64,000 bases of DNA from Patescibacteria group bacterium (lineage in GTDB: Bacteria; Patescibacteriota; Patescibacteriia; SG8-24; DYFX01): NCBI GenBank assembly GCA_030583805.1, contig CP129476.1:818497-882496 (forward strand), given 5' to 3'. Position numbers and translations under genes: made by a program. The notes under the pieces were generated by a model. That model worked only from the letters and a program-made list of their open reading frames with translations. It was not told where the DNA came from and ran no database searches. Of the stretch, positions 9,783-59,728 are shown one piece after another. Position 1 is the first letter of the stretch. Each line of letters opens with the position of its first letter.

Positions 9783-10214
9783 TCATTTCTTTCCCGGTGC
9801 TTTAAGTACGAGCCACAAGGCTCCCGCCACGATCATCGCGTCAGCCACGTTCACGGCTGAGAGCTGAAAAAAGATCGCGTAATCGACCGTAAATCCGTAG
9901 ACGATGCGGTCAAAGAGGTTGCTGCAAGCGCCGAGGATAAAAAAGAGATACGCCTCGGCTCGCTTGTAGTGTCTCGTCCGAAAGTCTTTGTACGCCAAAC
10001 GGACGACAAACGCCAGGATCACGAAACTGAGCAGCCACACGAACGGACCGGAGAAGGGGAGGCTGAACGCGATGCCGCTATTTCGAAACAGCTCGAATCG
10101 CAGCGCGCCAAGGGCTGTTTCCGCCTGTGCGCCCGAGAGCGCGAGCTGCTTCAAGACGCGATCCAGGGCGAATGCGCCGAGCGCGATCAGCGTCCATCGT
10201 GTCTGCAGTTTCAT
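9783..10214 (-). CDS. lspA: Lipoprotein signal peptidase II.
   Basis: Motifs FRNSGIAFSL, GACSNLFDRIVYGFTVDY and NVADAMIVAGALWLV. Start at MKLQTRW, an internal Met of the 201-aa ORF. Confidence 0.8.
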   Translation of the reverse strand: MKLQTRWTLIALGAFALDRVLKQLALSGAQAETALGALRFELFRNSGIAFSLPFSGPFVWLLSFVILAFVVRLAYKDFRTRHYKRAEAYLFFILGACSNLFDRIVYGFTVDYAIFFQLSAVNVADAMIVAGALWLVLKAPGKK

Positions 10215-10260
10215 GAAGTCCAGTATAGCAAAATCCCCCGACAGACGCCGGGGGACTCGC

Positions 10261-10626
10261 TTACTCCGTAAACAGTTTTTTGCAGTCGATGCAGGAGGTA
10301 GACGTCGGTCGCGCCATGAGACGCTTCTCGTCGATGACCTTTCCGCAGTATTTGCAAGTTCCGTAGGTTCCGTCCTGAATCCGCTCAAGCGCCTTCTTCA
10401 CGTCGCGAAGCGAGGCTTCCAGCGTGCGTTCAACGGTCAGATCCTTCGAGTACTCTGCAACTTCCGAAGCGTTCTCGTCCTCTTTGTCGCCAAGCTGCGG
10501 AAAGTCCGCATTGAAATCATCAGCGTTCTGAGGATTTCGTTGAGCGAAGCCACCCAGCTCTTCTTCGAGCTTAGCCTTTTCCTCTACCAGCTTCTCTTCA
10601 AGGGTTTTCAGGATGTTCTTGTCCAT
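10261..10626 (-). CDS. dksA: DksA/TraR-family C4 zinc-finger transcription factor.
   Basis: Coiled-coil N-terminus plus CKYCGKVIDEKRLMARPTSTSCIDC. Confidence 0.8.
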   Translation of the reverse strand: MDKNILKTLEEKLVEEKAKLEEELGGFAQRNPQNADDFNADFPQLGDKEDENASEVAEYSKDLTVERTLEASLRDVKKALERIQDGTYGTCKYCGKVIDEKRLMARPTSTSCIDCKKLFTE

Positions 10627-10718
10627 ACTTGGCTAAAAAAACGGGCTTCTGCCTTGCTAGCAGTATAGGGGATTGGTCCGGAGCTGGCAAGGGTTGAACC
10701 CTCCCTAAACAAAAGAAA

Positions 10719-10796
10719 AAGCTCGAGAGCGTGTATGCGGATTTGCCTCAGGACGCCTGTAAAGACGTGCTAGGGCAAATCCGCAATACTCTCGAG
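10719..10796. repeat. Long imperfect inverted repeat (stable hairpin) in a non-coding region.
   Basis: gctcgagagcgtgtatgcggatttgcc ... ggcaaatccgcaatactctcgagc; about 21 paired positions around a 26-nt loop. Confidence 0.5.
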
Positions 10797-11104
10797 CTTC
10801 AGAGTGCCTCGCGTTGAGCCTTCTGTTCGCCGCAGCGATCGAAGGACTAGCCAACGGTGGGCGGAAAGAACAACCTCCCCAACCTTCCAACGGTTCAAAT
10901 CCTCGGGTCAGTGCCGAAGCACGACATAATTGAGGCAGAACCAAGATGCTTTTGATTTTGGTTTTGCAAGGAGAAAAGTAAGGGAGAAGGATGCGCACCC
11001 AAGATGTTCTTCGGTAAGCGTCCTTCAAAGGGTCTTTCCGTATTCAGTTGTCAACGTTCTCTATAACCACTATACCCGAAATTAAGGCTTAGGTCAATCG
11101 GGAT

Positions 11105-11250
11105 GCTGTGGATGGAATTATCGTTAGTAATAAGGCGAAATAAGCTTATTCACTTAAGGCTAAGAGAGACTGTGTACAAAGGTGTGGATTGATTGTGGAT
11201 TGGGCTGAATAACGTTATCCACATTTCGCCTAGTAATATCCACAGACTGT
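11105..11250. promoter_or_regulatory. Cluster of five DnaA-box-like 9-mers with an adjacent AT-rich stretch: candidate oriC or DnaA-regulated region.
   Basis: tgtggatgg (11107), tgtggattg x2 (11184, 11194), TTATCCACA (perfect, 11215) and atatccaca (11236). AT-rich 11119-11168. Confidence 0.4.
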
Positions 11251-12435
11251 GAACAACCCCGTTTCAAGATTCTTTACGGTCACATTGACCTTGGTGAACG
11301 CTCCGTATGCGGCAACGGAGGTGCCAGAAAACGTCGCAAAGCCGCCAGCCCCGTCCTTATCGCAGGACGTGTTTGGTGTCAGCGCGTTCAAATTCGCAAG
11401 GAGTCCGGCCTGGATGAGCTGGACGTCATTACTGATCCAGGTTTCGCCGATATCAGCGTGAAAAACCAGGATTTTCTGGGATTTACCAGGAGTAGAAAAG
11501 CGGAAAAGCTGCCCGTAAGGGTTACGAAGAGCCTCTTTTTGAATGGATTCGGGGTCGTGGCGGAACTCAAGCATCACAGAGTCGTCGGGCAGCGTGACGT
11601 TCATGGTCTGTGGTGAGGCTTGAGCCAAAAGATCGCGAACAAACGATTCGACGTCGTTGGCAACATTCTTCTGGCCAACGGTCGGAAGGTAGTACATCAG
11701 GAAAGGAAAGAGCGTTTCGCCCGTTGAAGAAGCGCTTACGGCCAACTCGACACGCCCGGGCCATGTCCACGGGTCGGTTAAGCCTTTAAAACGCTGCATA
11801 GTCTTCTGGAGGAGCGCCGGTGACTCACCCCAAGAAACACCCGTCGGTTTTTCCAAATGCACCGCTTCCTGATCGATTGATCTGATCAGCTTCCGACCGA
11901 AAGCAAAGGGCTCAGGATTCAGCATCATGCCACGGTATCGCCGTCCGACCTCAAAACGCACCAATTTTTGCTCAAAATGAGCCGAGATCGGTTGCAAATG
12001 GCCATCCACGCGCAGTGTCCCGACGGCATCGACCTCGCGCGGTACAAGCCGCCACTTCGGCTCCTGGCTTTGCCCTCGCGCCGTGCTCAAGGCTTCAACC
12101 AAGCCCCATTGCAAGGCTCCTTCCGGGCTTCGGACGGCGAAAAGCGTGGCGGGGTTGCCTGGGACGGCTTGCGAGACGGCGGCGCGCGCATCCGCGGGAA
12201 GGGCGGCGACAAAACGCTGCCAGGCGGGGTCGTCGATAGAGGCCTGCTCGCGATTCAGAAACGAAAGCACGACTTCGGACTGCGGCGGCGCCGTCGGGCT
12301 GGTGTCGAGGACGAGGCGATGCGTGTAGAACAGCAGGCCTACAGCGAAAACAAACGCCCCTCCCAGGGGGAGGAGCGCTTGGAGTTTCGTAAGCTCGCGG
12401 AGCTTAGGCAGTTTTTGGAGCGTCGGAGCCGCCAT
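11230..12435 (-). CDS. Hypothetical membrane-anchored protein (N-terminal TM helix, 401 aa).
   Basis: ORF overlaps the pnp 3' end by 32 nt; N-terminal TM LPLGGAFVFAVGLLFY. Confidence 0.55.
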   Translation of the reverse strand: MAAPTLQKLPKLRELTKLQALLPLGGAFVFAVGLLFYTHRLVLDTSPTAPPQSEVVLSFLNREQASIDDPAWQRFVAALPADARAAVSQAVPGNPATLFAVRSPEGALQWGLVEALSTARGQSQEPKWRLVPREVDAVGTLRVDGHLQPISAHFEQKLVRFEVGRRYRGMMLNPEPFAFGRKLIRSIDQEAVHLEKPTGVSWGESPALLQKTMQRFKGLTDPWTWPGRVELAVSASSTGETLFPFLMYYLPTVGQKNVANDVESFVRDLLAQASPQTMNVTLPDDSVMLEFRHDPESIQKEALRNPYGQLFRFSTPGKSQKILVFHADIGETWISNDVQLIQAGLLANLNALTPNTSCDKDGAGGFATFSGTSVAAYGAFTKVNVTVKNLETGLFTVCGYY

Positions 12436-14575
12436 TCTGCTGAAGTTTCTCCTTAGCGCGCTTCAAGCTTAGGTTGACGCGGCCCAACTCGTCAATCTTG
12501 ATGACGACGACCGGGATGATATCGCCGACCTTCACGACGTCGGTGACTTTTTCAACGCGCTTGGAATCAAGCTCGCTGATGTGGACCATGCCCTCTTGTC
12601 CGGGAAGGACTTCGACGAACGCGCCGAAGTCGAGGATGCGCGTGACCTTGCCGGCTTCGAAGAACTCGCCGACTTTGAGTTCGCGCGTGAGATCTTCGAC
12701 CCACCTCTTCGCGGCCTGGAGCTGTTCGAGATTGACGGACGTGATCGTGACGGTGCCGTCGTTCTCGACATCCATCTGCACGCCGGTCTTCTCGATGATC
12801 GCGTTGATCGTTTTACCGCCGGGACCGATGACGTTGCGGATGAGATCGGGATTGATTTTGAGAACGACGATGCGCGGCGCGTACGGCGAGAGGTCGGGAC
12901 GCGGAGCGGCGATCGCTTGCGCCATGACGTCGAGAATCTGAAGACGCGCAGCCTTCGCTTTCGTCAGCGTCTCTTCGACGATCTGCCAAGTGAGGCCTTT
13001 CGTCTTGGTGTCCATCTGGATCGACGTGATGCCGTCGCGCGTGCCGCCGATCTTGAAGTCCATGCCGCCCATGCCGTCTTCCAAGTCTTGGAGGTCGGTG
13101 ATGATCTTGTAGCGGTTCACGTCGTTCGGATCGGTGGCGATGCCCATGGCGATGCCTGCGACCGGTTTCTTGATCGGCACGCCGGCGTCCATGAGCGCGA
13201 GCGTCGAACCGCAGATCGATCCCTGCGAAGAGGAACCGTTCGAGCCGAGCGTTTCGGACACGACGCGGATCGTGTACGGGAAGTCTTCCTTGGAAGGAAG
13301 CACCGGCACGAGCGCGCGCTCGGCGAGGCCTCCGTGCCCGATTTCACGGCGTCCGCCGCCGCCGAAGCGGCCCGTTTCGCCGACCGAATACGGAGGGAAG
13401 TTGTAGTGGTGGAAGTAGCGGCGCTTCTCGGAGAATTCCATGCTGTCGACCAGCTGGACGTCCGACGGCGCGCCGAGCGTCACGGTCGAGAGAATCTGCG
13501 TTTCACCCCGGGAAAACAGGCCCGAACCGTGGACGCGCGGAAGCAGCGCGACCTCGGCGGAGAGCTCGCGGATCTCGTCGAGCGCGCGGCCGTCGCAGCG
13601 CTTGCCCTCGTCCAAGATGATCTGCGAGACGACTTCTTCGACCCACTTCTGCATGGCGTCGAGCGCCCACTTGCGCTTGTCCTTGCCGACCTGTTCGGCC
13701 TTCAAGTATTCGTCGAGCGTGTGCGCGAGCGCGACCTTGGCGTCGCGGCGCTCGCCCTTCGTCGCTTTCGGCGTGGCAAAAAGATATTCGCGGATCTTGG
13801 GGAAGATGAACTCGCGCGACTTGGCGATCAGCGCTTCCTTTTCTTTCGCGGTTTCTTCGTCGAGGCCGATCAGCTCGTTGACCGAACGCTTCGGCTTGCC
13901 GATTTCGGCGACGATTTTTTCGATGAAGGCCTGGACTTCGGAAAGATGCTTCGCGCCGAAACGCATGCCGGCCATCACGTCTTCTTCTTTTGCTTCGTTG
14001 CTTTCCGCTTCCACCATGGTGGTGTGCGTCGGCGTGCCGACGATGACGACGTCGATGTCGCTCTTCTCGCGCGCTTCGTACGACGGGTTGATCACCCACT
14101 CGCTGCCGACGCGGCCGACGCGGATGCCGCCGACCGGACCGTCCCACGGAATGTCGGACATACCGAGCGCGATCGAAGCGCCGACCATGGCCGGGATGTC
14201 GTAATCGTTTTCCTTATCGAAAGCCAGGGTCGTAAAGACGACTTGGATTTCGTTGCGGATCTTCTGGTTGAAGAGCGGGCGGATCGAGCGGTCGATCATG
14301 CGGCCGACGACGACGGCGTCATCCGTCGGTCGTCCCTCGCGCTTCAGGAAGCGCGAAGACTTGATCTTGCCGGCGGCATAGAGGCGCTCTTCGCACTCCA
14401 CGGAGAGCGGAAGGAAGTCGATGCCGTCGCGAGAGCCCGAGCTCATCGTGGCGGTGACGAGCACCATCGTGTCGCCGTAGCGCACGACGCAGGAACCGTT
14501 GGCCTGCTTGGCGAGTTTGCCAATCTCAACAGAGAGCGTTTTGCCGCCCCACTCAAGCGAATACTGCTTGGTCAT
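12404..14575 (-). CDS. pnp: Polyribonucleotide nucleotidyltransferase (PNPase).
   Basis: Two RNase PH domains, KH and S1; start at MTKQYSLEWGG. Confidence 0.95.
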   Translation of the reverse strand: MTKQYSLEWGGKTLSVEIGKLAKQANGSCVVRYGDTMVLVTATMSSGSRDGIDFLPLSVECEERLYAAGKIKSSRFLKREGRPTDDAVVVGRMIDRSIRPLFNQKIRNEIQVVFTTLAFDKENDYDIPAMVGASIALGMSDIPWDGPVGGIRVGRVGSEWVINPSYEAREKSDIDVVIVGTPTHTTMVEAESNEAKEEDVMAGMRFGAKHLSEVQAFIEKIVAEIGKPKRSVNELIGLDEETAKEKEALIAKSREFIFPKIREYLFATPKATKGERRDAKVALAHTLDEYLKAEQVGKDKRKWALDAMQKWVEEVVSQIILDEGKRCDGRALDEIRELSAEVALLPRVHGSGLFSRGETQILSTVTLGAPSDVQLVDSMEFSEKRRYFHHYNFPPYSVGETGRFGGGGRREIGHGGLAERALVPVLPSKEDFPYTIRVVSETLGSNGSSSQGSICGSTLALMDAGVPIKKPVAGIAMGIATDPNDVNRYKIITDLQDLEDGMGGMDFKIGGTRDGITSIQMDTKTKGLTWQIVEETLTKAKAARLQILDVMAQAIAAPRPDLSPYAPRIVVLKINPDLIRNVIGPGGKTINAIIEKTGVQMDVENDGTVTITSVNLEQLQAAKRWVEDLTRELKVGEFFEAGKVTRILDFGAFVEVLPGQEGMVHISELDSKRVEKVTDVVKVGDIIPVVVIKIDELGRVNLSLKRAKEKLQQNGGSDAPKTA

Positions 14576-38091: not shown

Positions 38092-40395
38092 TTACACGGC
38101 AACGGTTTTCTGTCCCTTGATGCGCTCCGCGTCTTCGAGCTGGAGCGAGAGGATTGAAGATGTGGAATCTTCGCCCATGGTGACGCCGTAGAGCACCTGC
38201 GACTTCTGCATCGTGTAGCGGTTGTGCGTGATCACGAGGAACTGCGTCTTGTGCGAGAGCTCGTCGATGATCTTGGCGAAGCGCGCGGCGTTCGATTCGT
38301 CGAGCGCGGCGTCGACTTCGTCGAGCACCACGAAGGGCGAGGGGTTCGTCGTCATGATGGCGCAGATGAGCGCGATCGAGGTGAGGGCGCGCTCGCCGCC
38401 CGAGAGCATGTGGATCGACTTCACGCGTTTGCCGGGAGGATTCGCGTAGATTTCGAGGCCGAGCCAGGTTTCTTTCGGCGCGGCGGAAACGTCTTTCTTC
38501 ACTTCTTCCTCGATGCCGGCCGCTTCGTTGGCGGCGGCCTTCTCGGCTTCGGCGACTTCATCCTCCTCTTCTTCGCGCTCGATTTTTTCCAGAGAAGCGG
38601 CACCGCCGTCGAAGAGCTGCTTGAAGAATTCTCCGAAGTGCTGGTTGATGCGGCGGAACGAGGCGTCGGACTGTTTTTTGATCAGGACGTCGAGCTCCTC
38701 GATCATCACGACGAGCGAGGCCTTCGTCTTGTGCAGGTCCTCGACCTGGCCGGAAAGGAAGTCGAAGCGTTCTTTGATCTCCTTGTATTCGTCGACCACG
38801 GCCTGGTCGATCGAGCCGATCGCGGCGACCTGCGTGCGCAGTTGGTGGAGGCGGGGAGAGAGGGTGAGCGCGTCGACTTTCTGCGCCGGTTCGGCGGAAA
38901 GCGCGGCCATGGCCTCGTCGCCCATCATTTCCTTGGCTTCGCGCTCGACCGTTTCTTTGCGGGTTTCAATGCGCGCGCGCTCGACGCGGTGGTCGGAGAG
39001 GTGGCGGTCGAGTTCGAAGAGCTCGCCCTGGAACGACTGCATTTTGCGCTGAATCTCGAAGAAGGCGCCGCGCTTCTTGGCTTCCTCTTGGCCCCACTGC
39101 TGCATCTGGGTTTGGAGATCGGTCAGCGCTTTGCCCATCGAGGCGATGGCGGCAAGCGTTTCCTCCAACTCTTTCTGCATGGCGGCCGGGACGACGGGCT
39201 CTTTCTTTTCCTGCTTGCCCTTGTGGCCGGGCTCCTTCAGTTCGGAGAGCAGTTCGTTGATCTGCTTGCCGAGCTTTTCGAGCTCGTGCGCCGCTTGTTG
39301 CGCCTGTTCGAGCGTTTCGGCGTTCAGGATCGAGGAAACCAATTCGTCATGGCGTTCGGAAATCGCCGAGACTTCTTCGACGATGCGGGGGAGCGGCATC
39401 GGCAGCGCGGGCGCGTTGGCCGCTTGCGCCTTCATCTGTTCCATCCGGATCTGGTTCTTGAGCTGGATTTCCTTTTCGCGCAAACCGTTGCGCTTCTCCA
39501 TCTCCTTTTCGTATTCCTTTTGGAGCGCGATCAAGCCGTCGGACTTCGTTTCTTCCGTTTCCATGCCGGCGAGTTCGGCGCGGATCGCTTCGATCTCTTT
39601 CTCTTTGGCCTTGCGGCTTTCTTCGACCGTTTTCGTCTTCGCGTCGATCGCGGCAAGCTCCTCCTTGATTTGCTTCCACTGCGTGCCGAAGTAGAGGACC
39701 GAAAGCTCCTGGAGTTCTTTTTCCAGATTGGCGCGCTCTTCCAAGCGGCGCACTTGGCGCGAGAGGGAGCGCATGCGCGGTTCGATCTCGGCGAGGATGA
39801 GCTCGGCCTGTTTCAAGTTTTCTTCCGAAGCGTCGAGCTTGCGGACGGAGGCTTCGCGCTTCAGCTGGTATTGCTTCACGCCGGCGGCTTCGTCGAAAAA
39901 TTCCTTGCGCTCCTTGGGCGAAGCGACGAGGATCGCATCGATCATGCCTTGGCCGATGACGGAGTAGGTGCGCTGGCCGAAGTTGGCGCGCGCGAGGAGC
40001 AGGATGACTTCCTGCAGCTTCACCTTGTTTTTGTTGATCAGGTACTCCGATTCGCCGTCGCGGTAGATGCGGCGCGTGATGACGACTTCCGGATACTCGA
40101 TGTCGTTGCCGCCCGCTTCGTTGTTCAGCGCCAGCGAGACTTCGGCGAAACCCGAGCGCGAGCGCTTTTCGGAACCGCTGAAGATGACGTCTTCGGATTT
40201 CTTGCCGCGCAGGAGCTTCAAGGACTGCTCGCCCAAGACCCAGCGGACGGCGTCGGCGATGTTGGACTTGCCGGAACCGTTCGGGCCGACGATCGCGGTC
40301 GTGCCGCGGTTGCCTTCTTTCGGAGGGAGGAATTCCAAGACCGTGCGGTTGGCGAACGTCTTGAAACCCTGCATTTCGATGCGCTGGAGATACAT
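38092..40395 (-). CDS. smc: SMC-family chromosome segregation ATPase, short (767 aa) form without an obvious hinge.
   Basis: Canonical N-terminal head (GPNGSGKSN, RTYSVIGQG) and C-terminal head (LSGGERALTSIAL ... VVLDEVDAALD), with only about 430 aa of coiled-coil between them. Confidence 0.8.
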   Translation of the reverse strand: MYLQRIEMQGFKTFANRTVLEFLPPKEGNRGTTAIVGPNGSGKSNIADAVRWVLGEQSLKLLRGKKSEDVIFSGSEKRSRSGFAEVSLALNNEAGGNDIEYPEVVITRRIYRDGESEYLINKNKVKLQEVILLLARANFGQRTYSVIGQGMIDAILVASPKERKEFFDEAAGVKQYQLKREASVRKLDASEENLKQAELILAEIEPRMRSLSRQVRRLEERANLEKELQELSVLYFGTQWKQIKEELAAIDAKTKTVEESRKAKEKEIEAIRAELAGMETEETKSDGLIALQKEYEKEMEKRNGLREKEIQLKNQIRMEQMKAQAANAPALPMPLPRIVEEVSAISERHDELVSSILNAETLEQAQQAAHELEKLGKQINELLSELKEPGHKGKQEKKEPVVPAAMQKELEETLAAIASMGKALTDLQTQMQQWGQEEAKKRGAFFEIQRKMQSFQGELFELDRHLSDHRVERARIETRKETVEREAKEMMGDEAMAALSAEPAQKVDALTLSPRLHQLRTQVAAIGSIDQAVVDEYKEIKERFDFLSGQVEDLHKTKASLVVMIEELDVLIKKQSDASFRRINQHFGEFFKQLFDGGAASLEKIEREEEEDEVAEAEKAAANEAAGIEEEVKKDVSAAPKETWLGLEIYANPPGKRVKSIHMLSGGERALTSIALICAIMTTNPSPFVVLDEVDAALDESNAARFAKIIDELSHKTQFLVITHNRYTMQKSQVLYGVTMGEDSTSSILSLQLEDAERIKGQKTVAV

Positions 40396-40496
40396 GGGGA
40401 AAGGCGGCTAAATACCTCCTTAAAGTACCTGTAATGGCTTGACGTTTCAAGCGGCGGGGGCGATGCTGGGGGCGTCCTTTGCCAAGAGGAGGAGTC

Positions 40497-41135
40497 ATGA
40501 TTCGCAAACTCCGCGACCTCGATGAGAGCACGGTTCTTGCCGACGGCCCGCTGTTCGACCTGCCGAAGGCGCTCGCGTGCGCGCTCGCCATCCTCCGAAC
40601 GCTCATGCAGCGCGCGCAGATGCGCTTTCCGGACAGCGATCCGCCCACGTACATGTTCGCTTCGGAGGGCGTGGAACTGCCGTTCGAAGACGAAAGCCCC
40701 GGGTACATCGCCTGGACGTTCGAGGAGTGTAAGTTCACGCGGTACGACGTCGCGCCGCTCTACTACGAGGTGCAATTCGGACCGTTCATGGCGCATTTGT
40801 ACCTGCTCGGCTTCGACTGCCTGGTCGGGCCGACGATCAACTGCCAGACGCGCTTCGAGCTCAATTGGGATCGTCTCGATCCGACGCCGCTCATGCTCAT
40901 CATGCCGCGCGAGGGGCTGACGGAGGCTTTCGAGCAAGAGGAGCTCGCATTCCTCACGAAGCACTTCGCCGGCAGCTTGCCTGCGGGCGTCATCTGGAAC
41001 CCCACGGAGACGGAAGAGGACGGTTCGGCGCTCGCGATCCATTTCCCGCATGCCGCGTTCGGCAAGGGCGAAGGCACGATGCGCATCTACCGGATTCTCG
41101 ACGTCTCGGAGCTGCTGCAGGAGCAAGAGCCATGA
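40497..41135 (+). CDS. Hypothetical protein, tandem paralog A.
   Basis: Starts at MIRKLRDL; C-terminal HAAFGKGEGTMRIYRI. Confidence 0.45.
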   Translation: MIRKLRDLDESTVLADGPLFDLPKALACALAILRTLMQRAQMRFPDSDPPTYMFASEGVELPFEDESPGYIAWTFEECKFTRYDVAPLYYEVQFGPFMAHLYLLGFDCLVGPTINCQTRFELNWDRLDPTPLMLIMPREGLTEAFEQEELAFLTKHFAGSLPAGVIWNPTETEEDGSALAIHFPHAAFGKGEGTMRIYRILDVSELLQEQEP

Positions 41136-41815
41136 TCCGCTTCATTACGCCGACGGATTTTCCCGGTGTTGTCGCGGCCGAAGGGCCGGTGTACGACTTC
41201 GAGCGCGTGCTCGATTCCGGCTTCAGGATGTTGCGCGTCTTCCACGACGCCATCCGCGCCAGGCATCCGCGCGCCCGCTGTACGGCGATCGTTCCCGGCG
41301 GCCCCAGGTGGCCGTTCTATACCAGCTCGGTCGAGATGATGATGCGCGAGGAGATGCGCGAGCTGAAGAAGGAGTTCGACGTCGCGGGCGATGCCTGCAC
41401 GCTCGATGCCTGGCCGTACCACGCCGCGTTCTCCCCGATGGGGAGCGAGTCGCTGCTCAGAAGGCACGGCGAGCTCACGACCCCGAACGGCAACAATCCG
41501 TCCGAGCTCGATACGGCGCCGCAGCTCGCGGTCATGCGCAGCATGATCGGCGCCGACGGCGTTCCTGAAGAAGGACTGCTGCAGATGCTCGAAGGGATCT
41601 TCAATCCCTCAAAGAAGCCGCGGCAGGAGGAGAAGAGCGATCCGCCGCTTCAGCAGGCGCTGCGCGAAGAGGATCACGCGTTCTTCCGCGAGCTCTGGAC
41701 GCCGTTCGCCGAAGAGGGCGTCGTGCTGACCTACGGAGGCATGGTCGTCCAGGCGCGGTTTGATCACGCCGCCTTCGGCCTCGGCCGCGGCCCGCTCCGC
41801 ATCCAGGTCACCTGA
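41132..41815 (+). CDS. Hypothetical protein, tandem paralog B (ATGA start/stop overlap with A).
   Basis: Starts MIRFITPTDF; C-terminal HAAFGLGRGPLRIQV. Confidence 0.45.
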   Translation: MIRFITPTDFPGVVAAEGPVYDFERVLDSGFRMLRVFHDAIRARHPRARCTAIVPGGPRWPFYTSSVEMMMREEMRELKKEFDVAGDACTLDAWPYHAAFSPMGSESLLRRHGELTTPNGNNPSELDTAPQLAVMRSMIGADGVPEEGLLQMLEGIFNPSKKPRQEEKSDPPLQQALREEDHAFFRELWTPFAEEGVVLTYGGMVVQARFDHAAFGLGRGPLRIQVT

Positions 41816-56436: not shown

Positions 56437-56859
56437 TTACGGCGTGGCCGTCGTGGCGCGGATGACCGCGTTGATGATGAAGCCGGTGAGCGCGTAGGCC
56501 AGGAAGATGATGATGAGACCGATGATGCACTGCTTGATGATCTCTTTGGCCTTGTCGATCGGGTCGCTCTCGCCGCGCGCCGTCATCCAGAGGAAACCGG
56601 CGTAGACCATGAGGACCAGGAAGATGATACCGAGGAGACCGAGGAGCGTGCGGATGATGCGGCCGATGATGAGCGGGAGCTGCTGGCCAGCCGTGGCGGC
56701 GTCGCCGCTGTTCGGGTTCGGATTGGCGGCGTTCAGGCAGCCAAGGGCGTTTCCGGTGCTCGGGTCGCAAGGAGCTTGCGCGCCGACGGGCATCGCGACC
56801 AGGGCCATCTGACTCATGGTGAGGAGCGAGATGAAACCCAGAAGAAGTTTCTTGAGCAT
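56437..56859 (-). CDS. TrbC/VirB2-like (T4SS-type) pilin paralog 1.
   Basis: Signal peptide, then IIGRIIRTLLGLLGIIFLVLMVYAGFLWMTARGESD ... IIGLIIIFLAYAL: the two-TM pilin core. Confidence 0.6.
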   Translation of the reverse strand: MLKKLLLGFISLLTMSQMALVAMPVGAQAPCDPSTGNALGCLNAANPNPNSGDAATAGQQLPLIIGRIIRTLLGLLGIIFLVLMVYAGFLWMTARGESDPIDKAKEIIKQCIIGLIIIFLAYALTGFIINAVIRATTATP

Positions 56860-57234: not shown

Positions 57235-57804
57235 TTACGAGGCCTCAGCGCAGAGGCCGAAGCTGCAGGGCTGCGCTTCGCTTCCGATCGACGGGTCGCC
57301 CTCGCCGAGGCATTCGCACGTTCCGGTGTAGCAGTAGTTGCCGGGAACGCTGCAGTCCGAGGCGGTCGTGCACGTACGCGTCGTACATTCGTTCGTATCG
57401 ACCGTGATCGGCGTTGGGCCGTTCGGGTCGGACGCCGAGCCTGAGGAGGCTGTACCGGCTACGGCATTGATGACGAAGGCGGTGAGCGCGTACGACGCGG
57501 CGATGATGATGAGTCCCGTGACCGCTCCGGAAATGATCTTCTTTGCCGTATCGATTTTCTTGTCGTCGCCCCGGGCCGTCATGTAGAGAAAGCCGGAGTA
57601 GAGCATCAGGATCAGGAACAGGACGCCGAGATAACTGAGCACCGTCTGGATGAGCCGGCCGATCGTGGCCAGCAAGTCTTTGTTGCCTTTGAGCGAAGAC
57701 GGGGCGGCGGCATCAAGGCCGAATTGGGCGTAGACGTCGGGCAGTGCGACGAGCATGACGGCCACGAGGCACAGCGCCGGAAGAAGAATGCGTTTCAAGC
57801 GCAT
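57235..57804 (-). CDS. TrbC/VirB2-like pilin paralog 3 with a Cys-rich C-terminal extension.
   Basis: Pilin core IGRLIQTVLSYLGVLFLILMLYSGFLYMTARGDD, plus a C-terminal CTTRTCTTASDCSVPGNYCYTGTCECLGEG ... C. An alternative start lies at 57855. Confidence 0.55.
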   Translation of the reverse strand: MRLKRILLPALCLVAVMLVALPDVYAQFGLDAAAPSSLKGNKDLLATIGRLIQTVLSYLGVLFLILMLYSGFLYMTARGDDKKIDTAKKIISGAVTGLIIIAASYALTAFVINAVAGTASSGSASDPNGPTPITVDTNECTTRTCTTASDCSVPGNYCYTGTCECLGEGDPSIGSEAQPCSFGLCAEAS

Positions 57805-57915
57805 ACGTAGAGTGAGTTCAAGGGATCCGGAGATACCGGCGAACGTCGCCGGCATCTCCCGAGACCTTGTGACGACGCCCCGATTCGCATCGGGGCGTCG
57901 CGGTAAGGCGTTGTA

Positions 57916-58654: not shown

Positions 58655-59728
58655 TCAGGAAGAGGAAAGCGCGTTGAGCAAGATTGAGAGCACTGCGTAT
58701 GAAAGGAAGATCGCGGCGAGGGCGGACACGGTCGTCGTGATCATGCCGCGAGCCTCGGCGACTTTCTTTTCATCGCCCGCGGCGGTCATGTACTTGATGC
58801 CGCCCCAGATGAAGAAGACGAGCGCGATTGCGCCGACGACGCCGAGCAATGTGCGGATGACGCGCCCGATAACCGCAGGCAGACTGATGCTTCCAAGAGG
58901 CAAGGGGAGTGAAATCGCGCTTCCGCGTTCGGTGACCGATCCGGTTCCCGCCGGCGCGCTTTGTTCCATTTTTGCCAGCGCCGCCAGGATGGCGTCACCT
59001 TTACGGATCGCTTCCAAACACGCCCGGTAGCGAGCCTTTGTCTCTTCAGCGTCGGCGGCGCTCAAGTACGAAATGTAGAGGTCACCGCGAACGGTCAAGG
59101 TGCCCGCATCACAGAATTCCGAAAAGGCCATGAACGCATCGTGCTTAGCGCTATGGAATGCGATTTCGTCAGTAAAAAGCTGCGTTCCGGGTTCAATCGT
59201 CAAGCCTTCAATTCCACGCGTTGTACCGAAGGTGAGCACCCGATCGTTCACGTACATGTCGTTCGGAATGATCGTATAGTCGAAAGCGTTTTTGATCGCT
59301 TCCCACGCCGCCTGATCTTCCGGTACGAGCTCGGTGCGTTCGGAGAGGGTGATCGTTTCGCCATCGATGACCACGGTCGGTCGATAGGTATGCTCGCGCG
59401 CGCTTTGATTCAAGATGACGGCGAAGGATTCTTCCGCCAGTTTCCTGCCAGCCGAAAGATGGATGCAGTAGGTTTTCGCATCCGGCCTAGTCGACGTGCA
59501 GTTCGGAAATTGGTCTGCCAACGTGATCGTGCGTTCCGTGGCTCGAAGCGCCAAGTCGTAGTGACTTTCACAAAACGATCGATACTGCGCCGGCACTGGC
59601 GTAGCCGCTTCGGTGCAAGTTATCAATGGCAACCATAACGCTTTGGCAGCGAATGGCGCGGCAGCGACAAAGGCGATCGTGGCGCTGACCATCACTACTC
59701 CGAGCGTTCTTGCGGCAGAATTCTGCAT
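58655..59728 (-). CDS. Fusion protein: ~250-aa N-terminal extracellular domain plus a C-terminal TrbC/VirB2-like pilin core.
   Basis: C-terminal VIGRVIRTLLGVVGAIALVFFIWGGIKYMTAAGDE ... LAAIFLSYAVL. Confidence 0.55.
   Translation of the reverse strand: MQNSAARTLGVVMVSATIAFVAAAPFAAKALWLPLITCTEAATPVPAQYRSFCESHYDLALRATERTITLADQFPNCTSTRPDAKTYCIHLSAGRKLAEESFAVILNQSAREHTYRPTVVIDGETITLSERTELVPEDQAAWEAIKNAFDYTIIPNDMYVNDRVLTFGTTRGIEGLTIEPGTQLFTDEIAFHSAKHDAFMAFSEFCDAGTLTVRGDLYISYLSAADAEETKARYRACLEAIRKGDAILAALAKMEQSAPAGTGSVTERGSAISLPLPLGSISLPAVIGRVIRTLLGVVGAIALVFFIWGGIKYMTAAGDEKKVAEARGMITTTVSALAAIFLSYAVLSILLNALSSS

Follow-up and report, generated by a model that had tools for sequence, protein, structure and literature searches.

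A helical hairpin in place of the hinge in an SMC protein from a Patescibacteria group bacterium

Introduction

Can a chromosomal SMC protein lack a hinge, and if so, what takes the hinge's place? A hinge is regarded as one of the features that define SMC proteins: it is the dimerization site, it is a DNA-binding site, and in cohesin it is a proposed DNA gate. The question is raised by one gene in a 64-kb stretch of DNA (the window) from contig CP129476.1, which belongs to a Patescibacteria group bacterium. The gene, smc (38092..40395), is on the minus strand, as are all of the features of the protein that we describe, and it encodes 767 amino acids. An earlier, sequence-only reading of the window had described its product as an apparently hinge-less SMC. 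Here, we show that the product is an SMC protein with an intact ATPase, and that it has no hinge fold and no zinc hook. A hairpin tip is at the hinge's place. We also show that hinges have been replaced in place, and that the arms fall into discrete length classes, among relatives from the candidate phyla radiation (CPR). We consider it very probable that the gene is an smc ortholog whose hinge has been replaced by a hairpin.

Results

The gene encodes an SMC protein with an intact ATPase

The smc open reading frame (ORF) has 767 codons and a stop, and its start codon is ATG. The N-terminus (MYLQRIEMQGFKTF) agrees with the N-termini of all the homologues that we compared. The GC content by codon position (GC3 of 0.82 and GC2 of 0.35, for the third and second positions) is usual for genes of this window, which is 60% GC. 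(The sequence AAGGAGG is found at 40415–40421, 19 nt upstream of the ATG; this spacing exceeds the usual Shine-Dalgarno distance.)

The protein matches Pfam's SMC_N over residues 2–746 (E = 1e-65). It scores 599.1 bits against NCBIfam's TIGR02168 (SMC_prok_B), above the curated cut-off of 567.35 bits, and the first aligned stretch pairs residues 2–324 with positions 1–319 of the model's 1,181. The closest solved structures are the Smc heads of Bacillus subtilis (346 bits) and Geobacillus (306 bits). When Foldseek was run with the whole full-length AlphaFold2 (AF2) model, it recovered SMC heads only, and the top match was a Pyrococcus Smc head with coiled coil and joint. The models for related families stay under their cut-offs: the RecN model (TIGR00634) gives 38.8 bits against a cut-off of 407.85, the Rad50 models give 27–36 bits against cut-offs of 700–1087, and the models of archaeal SMC-related proteins score far under theirs. 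PADLOC gave head-level matches only (mad3, 196 bits over residues 524–764; LmuB, 55 bits; JetC, 33 bits).

The sequence-only reading had quoted a Walker A motif, a signature motif, and a Walker B motif, and all three are where it placed them. A Q-loop and an H-loop are present as well. The N-terminal half of the head (residues 1–170; 39886..40395), which AF2 models with a predicted confidence (pLDDT) of mostly 80–90, contains Walker A (GPNGSGKSN, residues 37–45; 40261–40287) and the Q-loop (IGQG at residue 147, with Q149). The C-terminal half (residues 596–767; 38095..38610) contains the signature motif (LSGGERALTSIAL, residues 664–676, with LSGGE at 664; 38368–38406), Walker B (VVLDEVDAALD, residues 689–699, with the catalytic glutamate in DEVD, 692–695; 38299–38331), and the H-loop (THN at residue 723). 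In an alignment with 67 homologues, the positions of these motifs are invariant.

The C-terminal half of the head also contains an acidic, variable insert (residues 603–645; 38461..38589) with low pLDDT and low conservation. The insert sits between the LFGGG strand and the PPGKK strand, and longer CPR forms carry comparable inserts. In B. subtilis Smc, the loop at this place is much shorter, at about 11 residues.

A helical hairpin lies where the hinge is expected

The two head halves stop at about residue 170 and resume at about residue 595. The ~425 residues between them are close to the ~430 that had been estimated by the sequence-only reading, which had also found no hinge-like domain there and had proposed a profile search and a structure prediction as checks. 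Both bear it out. A Pfam scan did not find SMC_hinge (PF06470) in the protein, and phmmer with hinges from CPR relatives and from Bacillales had no match in it. The phmmer matches were confined to relatives of 995–1060 amino acids, an Anaerolineae SMC (L028, 1036 amino acids), and canonical SMCs. The protein's single cysteine (position 678) belongs to the head, which leaves no CxxC zinc hook.

In the full-length AF2 model (pLDDT 76.9), the heads are complete and the arm helices are long. The confidence of the model is low only at 324–334, at 385–402, and in segments 610–612 and 627–638 of the acidic insert. We also modelled residues 270–480 as a fragment, using an alignment of 114 sequences, with a pLDDT of 91.6 and a predicted TM-score (pTM) of 0.63. 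The fragment model has a helix at 286–327, a loop at 328–334, a helix at 335–357, a turn at 358–361, a helix at 362–387, a loop at 388–403, and a helix at 404–479. The ~75 residues of the apex are predicted to be all-helical, with no strands.

Combining these models gives the following layout. The N-terminal arm helix (residues 174–327; 39415..39876) has a conserved three-residue break at 283–285 (EETxSD). It is followed by a proline-rich break, L1 (APALPMP, residues 328–334; 39394..39414), in which P334 is invariant. At the hinge position is the tip hairpin (39235..39393), which consists of helix Ha (335–357), the turn (358–361, with consensus A-E/K-T-L-E), and helix Hb (362–387), all with a pLDDT of about 95 in the fragment model. 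On the C-terminal strand, a proline-flanked break, L2 (EPGHKGKQEKKEPVVP, residues 388–403; 39187..39234), has a pLDDT of about 59; it is gappy in the alignment, and its length differs among relatives. The breaks on the two strands lie about 25 residues below the apex, and a motif, LERPxP...DP, is conserved. The C-terminal arm helix (residues 404–595; 38611..39186) has loops at 501–508 and at 527–530 (GGID, which is joint-like), and a KKxxFFxLQR motif is conserved at 441–450. From head to tip, the arm has ~187 residues per strand (~27 nm), as compared to ~335 residues (~49 nm) in B. subtilis Smc. The sequence-only reading had offered shortened arms or no hinge; both hold, since the protein has shortened arms as well as a replaced hinge.

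We inferred the topology of the hairpin in two independent ways. First, we compared the lengths of the two strands, measured from hidden Markov model (HMM) anchors, one where the N-terminal head half ends (the N anchor) and one on the LFGGG strand (the C anchor). In relatives of ~750 amino acids (the short class, see below), the tip module is ~159 residues away from the N anchor and ~202 away from the C anchor; in relatives of ~885 amino acids (the middle class), the same distances are ~225 and ~270. So the C-terminal strand is longer by ~45 residues in both classes. In B. subtilis Smc, paired truncation points imply that residue x pairs with residue 1171-x, which gives the same offset of ~45 (PMC5344682). 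For the window protein, this offset predicts that the numbers of paired residues should sum to ~719, and that the arm proper should end at ~327 and ~404.

Second, we looked for covariation, using mutual information with the average-product correction across 205 apex segments (167 effective sequences) after removing gappy columns. Among the 30 top pairs, 17 have i+j of 716–746, versus a background of 17.8% (binomial p = 2e-6). The covarying links join 288–295 with 434–450, 331 with 385–391, and 339–359 with 367–389. Pairs 348–378, 357–373, 343–387, and 359–367 are between Ha and Hb, in antiparallel. Because the strand lengths and the covariation agree, we conclude that the arm is one continuous antiparallel hairpin, with its apex at the A-(E/K)-T-L-E turn. 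When a jackhmmer profile was built from the tip module, 205 of the 292 family members matched it, and these matches span the length classes; by eye too, most family members share the module.

We also considered that loop 388–403 might be the apex, or that Hb might fold back to form a three-helix cap. Both are ruled out by the covariation, which sets the turn at ~358–366 and pairs Ha with Hb. Furthermore, the B. subtilis register fits only if the arm ends at ~327 and ~404, and in Saccharibacteria L2 has only ~6 residues; both of these observations count against either alternative.

Hinge-less SMC is the dominant form among the closest relatives

A word-indexed search yielded 7,996 homologues (E values up to 1e-10), of which we considered the best 120 in detail. 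Nearly all of these have 741–808 amino acids; they come from many studies, and the named ones are mostly Patescibacteria, Uhrbacteria, or Parcubacteria. The Pfam hinge domain is in none of the best 120. The exact protein is on two assemblies, namely the 1.17-Mb NCBI contig and an independent 50-kb contig. That short forms had been noted in reduced genomes was part of the sequence-only reading; the short hinge-less form is real, but it is by no means peculiar to a single reduced genome.

When 1.84 billion cluster representatives were searched exhaustively with a profile, 17,217 of them matched with E values up to 1e-30. Among the best 150 of these, 147 were newly returned, and their lengths form three classes, with empty gaps between them: ~750 amino acids (52 representatives), ~885 amino acids (74 representatives), and 995–1092 amino acids (21 representatives). 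The distances from head anchor to head anchor are equally discrete (405–440, 525–570, or 660–735 residues). Only 11 of these representatives have a hinge, and all of those have 995–1060 amino acids. The hinge is absent from every member of the two shorter classes and from about 10 of the long ones, one of which is a Falkowbacteria cluster. A metagenome scan gave the same length pattern again. The dominant SMC of the closest CPR relatives is the hinge-less form, which occurs with arms of three length classes. (In L164, a metagenomic relative, phmmer found no hinge in a 1148-amino-acid ORF; this may be a fourth arm-length class, or its hinge may be divergent. Another CPR relative, P0102, is a short SMC that reaches 1303 amino acids with a LAGLIDADG intein in Walker A, GPNGSGK|C...VHN|SNSADAVRW.)

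Hinged relatives, with ~1000–1035 amino acids, align colinearly with the hinge-less forms, and the segment that replaces the hinge is helical and has ~65–75 amino acids. For instance, hinged P0192 (1035 amino acids) can be compared to hinge-less L023 (924 amino acids; ORF 10001–12775) and P0173 (919 amino acids). The Kimura distance between the heads is 0.22–0.25 (roughly 80% identity), the arms are colinear on both sides, and the ~175 hinge residues of P0192 correspond to ~65 helical residues in L023 and P0173. Other hinge-less lineages are far more distant. This comparison suggests that the hinge was lost repeatedly or that recombination swapped the middle of the gene.

Which came first, the loss of the hinge or the change in the arms? 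The arm strands of the ~885-amino-acid class (~221 and ~257 residues) are nearly equal to those of hinged P0183 (~227 and ~263 residues), so in the simplest history, the hinge was lost in place first. That is, a hinged CPR SMC of ~1000 amino acids lost its hinge, and then the arms shortened or lengthened by one step of ~64–80 residues per strand. In a neighbor-joining tree of the heads, the length classes and the hinged forms interleave, which may reflect repeated loss, recombination, or an error of the tree.

Hinge-less SMC in other phyla

We also scanned the species genomes of GTDB, and the groups named here are those among the matches listed. Hinge-less ORFs of 726–782 amino acids were found in Uhrbacteria, Azambacteria, Saccharibacteria, and other Patescibacteria. 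They were also found in Actinomycetota, specifically in Thermoleophilales, in Solirubrobacterales, and in another metagenome-assembled genome (MAG) from that phylum (L022, at 10001–12349; L026; and L029). A MAG from Anaerolineae (L067, at 10001–12646) encodes a hinge-less SMC of 881 amino acids. In the neighbor-joining tree of the heads, the forms from Actinomycetota and Anaerolineae are apart from the CPR clade. The tip sequences from Saccharibacteria and Actinomycetota have diverged beyond recognition from the CPR tip module.

In the Thermoleophilales MAG, the gene for the 782-amino-acid protein lies in the order coaD-yceD-plsX-rnc-smc-ftsY...ffh...trmD. Because a hinge-less gene is at the textbook smc locus, hinge loss has occurred in the orthologous gene in more than one phylum.

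Four other MAGs (L007, L010, L023, and L025) are titled "uncultured Gammaproteobacteria bacterium," and each encodes a CPR-type SMC that is 44–50% identical to the window protein. These are probably mislabelled CPR bins. For Southlakia epibionticum ML1, a cultivated Saccharibacterium, the supplementary tables of PMC10633639 show rnc, rpsP, the KH-domain gene, and trmD as contiguous, with no smc between them. In the portion of those tables available to us, there were no entries for an SMC hinge, ScpA, or ScpB. As far as that portion goes, the smc of oral Saccharibacteria may be located elsewhere or may have been lost.

The gene is in the usual place for smc

In relatives that range from 93% to ~50% identity, the gene order HSP20-VanW-ClpP-DHH/DHHA1-(RbfA)-smc-rpsP-khpA-trmD is kept. 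The window has the same order, along with a few small lineage-specific ORFs, and rpsP and khpA are 3.9–5.2 kb downstream of smc. In B. subtilis, smc lies in the region rnc-smc-ftsY...ffh-rpsP-khpA-rimM-trmD. Because the two neighborhoods match, the window gene is the positional ortholog of B. subtilis smc: by its position it is an ortholog and not a paralog. In summary, the window gene has the head halves, the antiparallel arm, the family score, and the chromosomal position of a bacterial SMC, and it lacks the PF06470 hinge.

The other genes in the window fit a CPR genome: they include T4SS-type pilins, PNPase, ClpP, H+-PPase, and many ORFs without a family. A cluster of three genes with T4SS_pilin domains, typical of Patescibacteria, is at 56437–56859, 57235–57855, and 58655–59728, all on the minus strand. 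The product of a gene neighboring smc matches, at 100% identity, a hypothetical protein of a Patescibacteria group bacterium, QY323_04555, whose contig has 1,167,441 bp.

Two paralogous orphan genes are divergent from smc, at 40497–41135 (plus strand, 212 amino acids) and 41132–41815 (plus strand, 227 amino acids). The two proteins are alike at both the N-terminus and the C-terminus, and they are found in the closest relatives only: among 5.8 billion proteins, they have just 4 homologues. We considered that this pair might be a kleisin or a kite protein, as there is a faint likeness ("GPLxDL") to the N-terminus of ScpA. However, neither protein has a match in Pfam or PADLOC, they have only those 4 homologues, and they are missing beside smc in more distant relatives.

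Discussion

How might a hinge-less SMC work?

We propose that the window ORF serves the organism as its single housekeeping smc gene, and that a short, all-helical tip has taken the place of the globular hinge of ~170 residues. The arm helices (174–327 and 404–595) pair in antiparallel, pass the proline-rich breaks (328–334 and 388–403), and end in a helical hairpin of 23 + 26 residues, whose turn at ~358–366 is the apex. In our proposal, the protein would still work as an SMC dimer, with ATP-driven engagement of the heads at one end. At the other end, two tip hairpins would pack side by side as a four-helix bundle and assume the hinge's role in dimerization. The proline-rich breaks would supply flexibility, and the ring would be closed by a kleisin whose gene is elsewhere in the genome. 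We put the probability of this explanation as a whole (an smc ortholog, tipped by a hairpin, that works as a dimer) at roughly 60%. As to its most specific part, dimerization via the tips, we consider the odds to be even.

In support of our proposal, the arms come in discrete length classes. This argues that the two arms have to remain in superhelical register from the heads up to another fixed point of contact. For this second contact, the conserved tip hairpin, with its flexible proline-rich breaks, is the sole candidate, and a four-helix bundle is the simplest geometry. Furthermore, B. subtilis Smc supports growth when its hinge is swapped for the zinc hook of Rad50, and its arm length is functional in periodic regimes only (PMC5344682). 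Because that chimera grows and because the CPR arm classes are sharp, a working dimer without a hinge is plausible.

Several observations weigh against our proposal. The covariation rests on ~167 effective sequences, and its statistics ignore the kinship among them. The tip helices show ordinary a/d heptads, with no obvious second hydrophobic face. The neighbor-joining tree of the heads lacks the strength to tell how many hinge losses there were within CPR. And we did not find the kleisin: ScpA and ScpB had no Pfam matches in the ~50 ORFs that cover the whole window, local HMM searches of the window found neither of them, and neither adjoins the hinge-less smc in 168 loci (~40 of which have a complete hinge-less smc). 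The queries for jackhmmer were B. subtilis ScpA (checked against the PDB) and ScpB, along with an HMM from 120 sequences of the N-terminus of ScpA. As a positive control, the sole ScpA recovered from the window and the fetched loci adjoins a canonical SMC, in L114. When a large protein database was queried with a consensus ScpA, none of the top 120 matches had a CPR label. The sequence-only reading had pointed to the absence of scpA and scpB beside smc, and this is true. But scpAB is not normally linked to smc (of the loci examined, just one, with a canonical SMC, had an adjacent ScpA), so their absence there is uninformative.

The main rival to our proposal is that the protein dimerizes by its heads alone. 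A monomeric hairpin would pair via the ATP-engaged heads, and perhaps via a kleisin, while the far ends stayed free. The tip would bind DNA or a partner, or would be a mere cap, and the protein would clamp DNA at the heads without forming a hinge-closed ring. In favor of this rival, the tip shows no dimerization fold, no cysteine hook, and no additional hydrophobic seam, the tip sequences are unrecognizable in Saccharibacteria and Actinomycetota, and no kleisin was found in the window or beside the hinge-less smc in the fetched loci. However, sharp arm classes with empty gaps between them are expected if the arms are kept in register between two fixed attachments (PMC5344682), and the tip module and the break on both strands are conserved across the arm classes. 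We consider dimerization by the heads alone to be unlikely, though it deserves to be taken seriously.

It is far less probable that the protein is a specialized SMC-like ATPase, such as LmuB of Lamassu, JetC of Wadjet, a MADS protein, RecN, or Rad50/SbcC, instead of a chromosomal SMC. A short coiled coil without a hinge is reminiscent of RecN, LmuB, and Rad50, and PADLOC reports matches at the level of the head (196 bits for mad3 and 55 bits for LmuB). But the protein passes the cut-off for SMC_prok_B (599 bits) and falls far short for RecN (39 versus 408 bits) and Rad50 (27–36 versus 700–1087 bits). Its housekeeping neighborhood is kept over deep divergence, and the counterpart in Thermoleophilales is between rnc and ftsY. 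Also, no defense partners were found nearby (PADLOC had no matches in the three ORFs neighboring smc), and there is no CxxC.

Could residues 328–403 hide a real hinge that is highly divergent? The segment is exactly at the hinge position and is conserved as a module. But it has only ~75 residues, instead of ~170 for a hinge; it is predicted to form two helices (pLDDT ~95) and no strands; and the covariation is that of a simple antiparallel pair of helices. The sequence-only reading had allowed for a divergent but intact hinge, and given the helical apex (pLDDT 91.6) and the ~175-residue gap in alignments to hinged relatives, we regard this as scarcely credible. That reading had also allowed for a truncated or misassembled gene, but an assembly artefact, a truncation, or a pseudogene has nothing in its favor besides the unusual length and is negligible, as the frame is intact with all motifs, the codon bias is strong (GC3 of 0.82 versus 0.35 at the second codon position), the identical protein is on two independent assemblies, the best 120 homologues are almost all of 741–808 amino acids and come from many studies, and the architecture recurs in thousands of independent assemblies.

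Implications

On a broader scale, we tentatively suggest (with slightly less than even confidence) that much of the Patescibacteria and, independently, some Actinomycetota and Chloroflexota organize their chromosomes with a hinge-less SMC. Either a bare hairpin tip would suffice to keep the dimer together, perhaps as a four-helix bundle, or no distal dimerization would be needed. If the latter is true, then SMC function would not require a hinge-closed ring. The family is a natural test of what the hinge and the arm length of SMC are for: the head, the neck, and the register of the arm are kept, while the length of the arm changes in discrete steps only. It is also an independent evolutionary test of the rule that arm lengths are periodic. 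If this broader suggestion is correct, the three arm lengths, along with sisters whose heads are ~80% identical, form a natural series for models of loop extrusion or arm mechanics.

There are practical implications as well. The matched hinged and hinge-less orthologs are suitable for swap experiments, and a natural minimal SMC of ~750 amino acids should be useful for structural and single-molecule work. There is also a warning for annotation: the majority of these proteins carry the name "AAA family ATPase" in the databases, and surveys that are seeded with the hinge miss them.

Comparison with known systems

Like B. subtilis Smc of Smc-ScpAB, the window protein has the head halves, a neck, a joint-like break (GGID), and an antiparallel intramolecular coiled coil. 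It also shares the genomic position near rpsP, khpA, and trmD, and it passes the cut-off for TIGR02168. Unlike B. subtilis Smc, it has no hinge, it has ~187 instead of ~335 residues per strand, and it has an acidic insert in the C-terminal half of the head.

The precedent is one published hinge-less clade, in another phylum. Sussfeld et al. 2025 described an abundant marine clade of "hinge-less" SMC, assigned it to Actinomycetes, and argued that it is an ortholog rather than a paralog (PMC12153180). The window protein has the traits of hinge-less SMC as they described it: SMC-type heads, a coiled coil, no hinge, no CxxC, and the smc locus. The two differ in phylum, and our comparison is to the description of the marine clade (PMC12153180). 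The short SMCs that we found in Actinomycetota (L022, L026, and L029) branch off the CPR clade, and their tips do not match the CPR module. The paper on the marine clade gives no tip topology, arm-length classes, or pairs of hinged and hinge-less sisters (PMC12153180). New in our analysis are the size of the family in Patescibacteria, the replacement of the hinge in place as seen in sister proteins, the topology of the tip, and the three arm-length classes. In the collection of papers that we searched for SMC or ScpAB with CPR terms, there was no account of the architecture of CPR SMCs.

Unlike Rad50/SbcC, the window protein has no CxxC zinc hook, as its only cysteine is in the head, and no Mre11/SbcD-type nuclease was found among the ORFs of the window. 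Like RecN, it has a short coiled coil without a hinge. Unlike RecN, it has another head subtype and another genomic context, and it scores 38.8 bits against TIGR00634, versus a cut-off of 407.85. Pellegrino and colleagues reportedly found, in 2012, that RecN dimerizes through its distal coiled coil.

The arms of natural SMCs cluster at 163, 238, 341, 423, and 515 residues (PMC5344682). The CPR classes, measured between anchors, have ~158–179, ~229–245, and ~303–322 residues per strand; the first two are near 163 and 238, and the third fits less well. That survey was seeded with alignments of the hinge (PMC5344682), so it could not have found the hinge-less CPR family. In the same study, the Mini-Smc and Smc(Rad50 zinc-hook) chimeras resemble the CPR proteins in having shortened arms or an unrelated apex instead of the hinge. 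The chimeras are laboratory constructs with a hook that is proven to dimerize, whereas the CPR replacement is natural and has no known dimerization motif. One such chimera showed that the hinge fold is dispensable in B. subtilis (PMC5344682), and the CPR family is a natural swap of this kind, at a large scale and in the smc ortholog itself.

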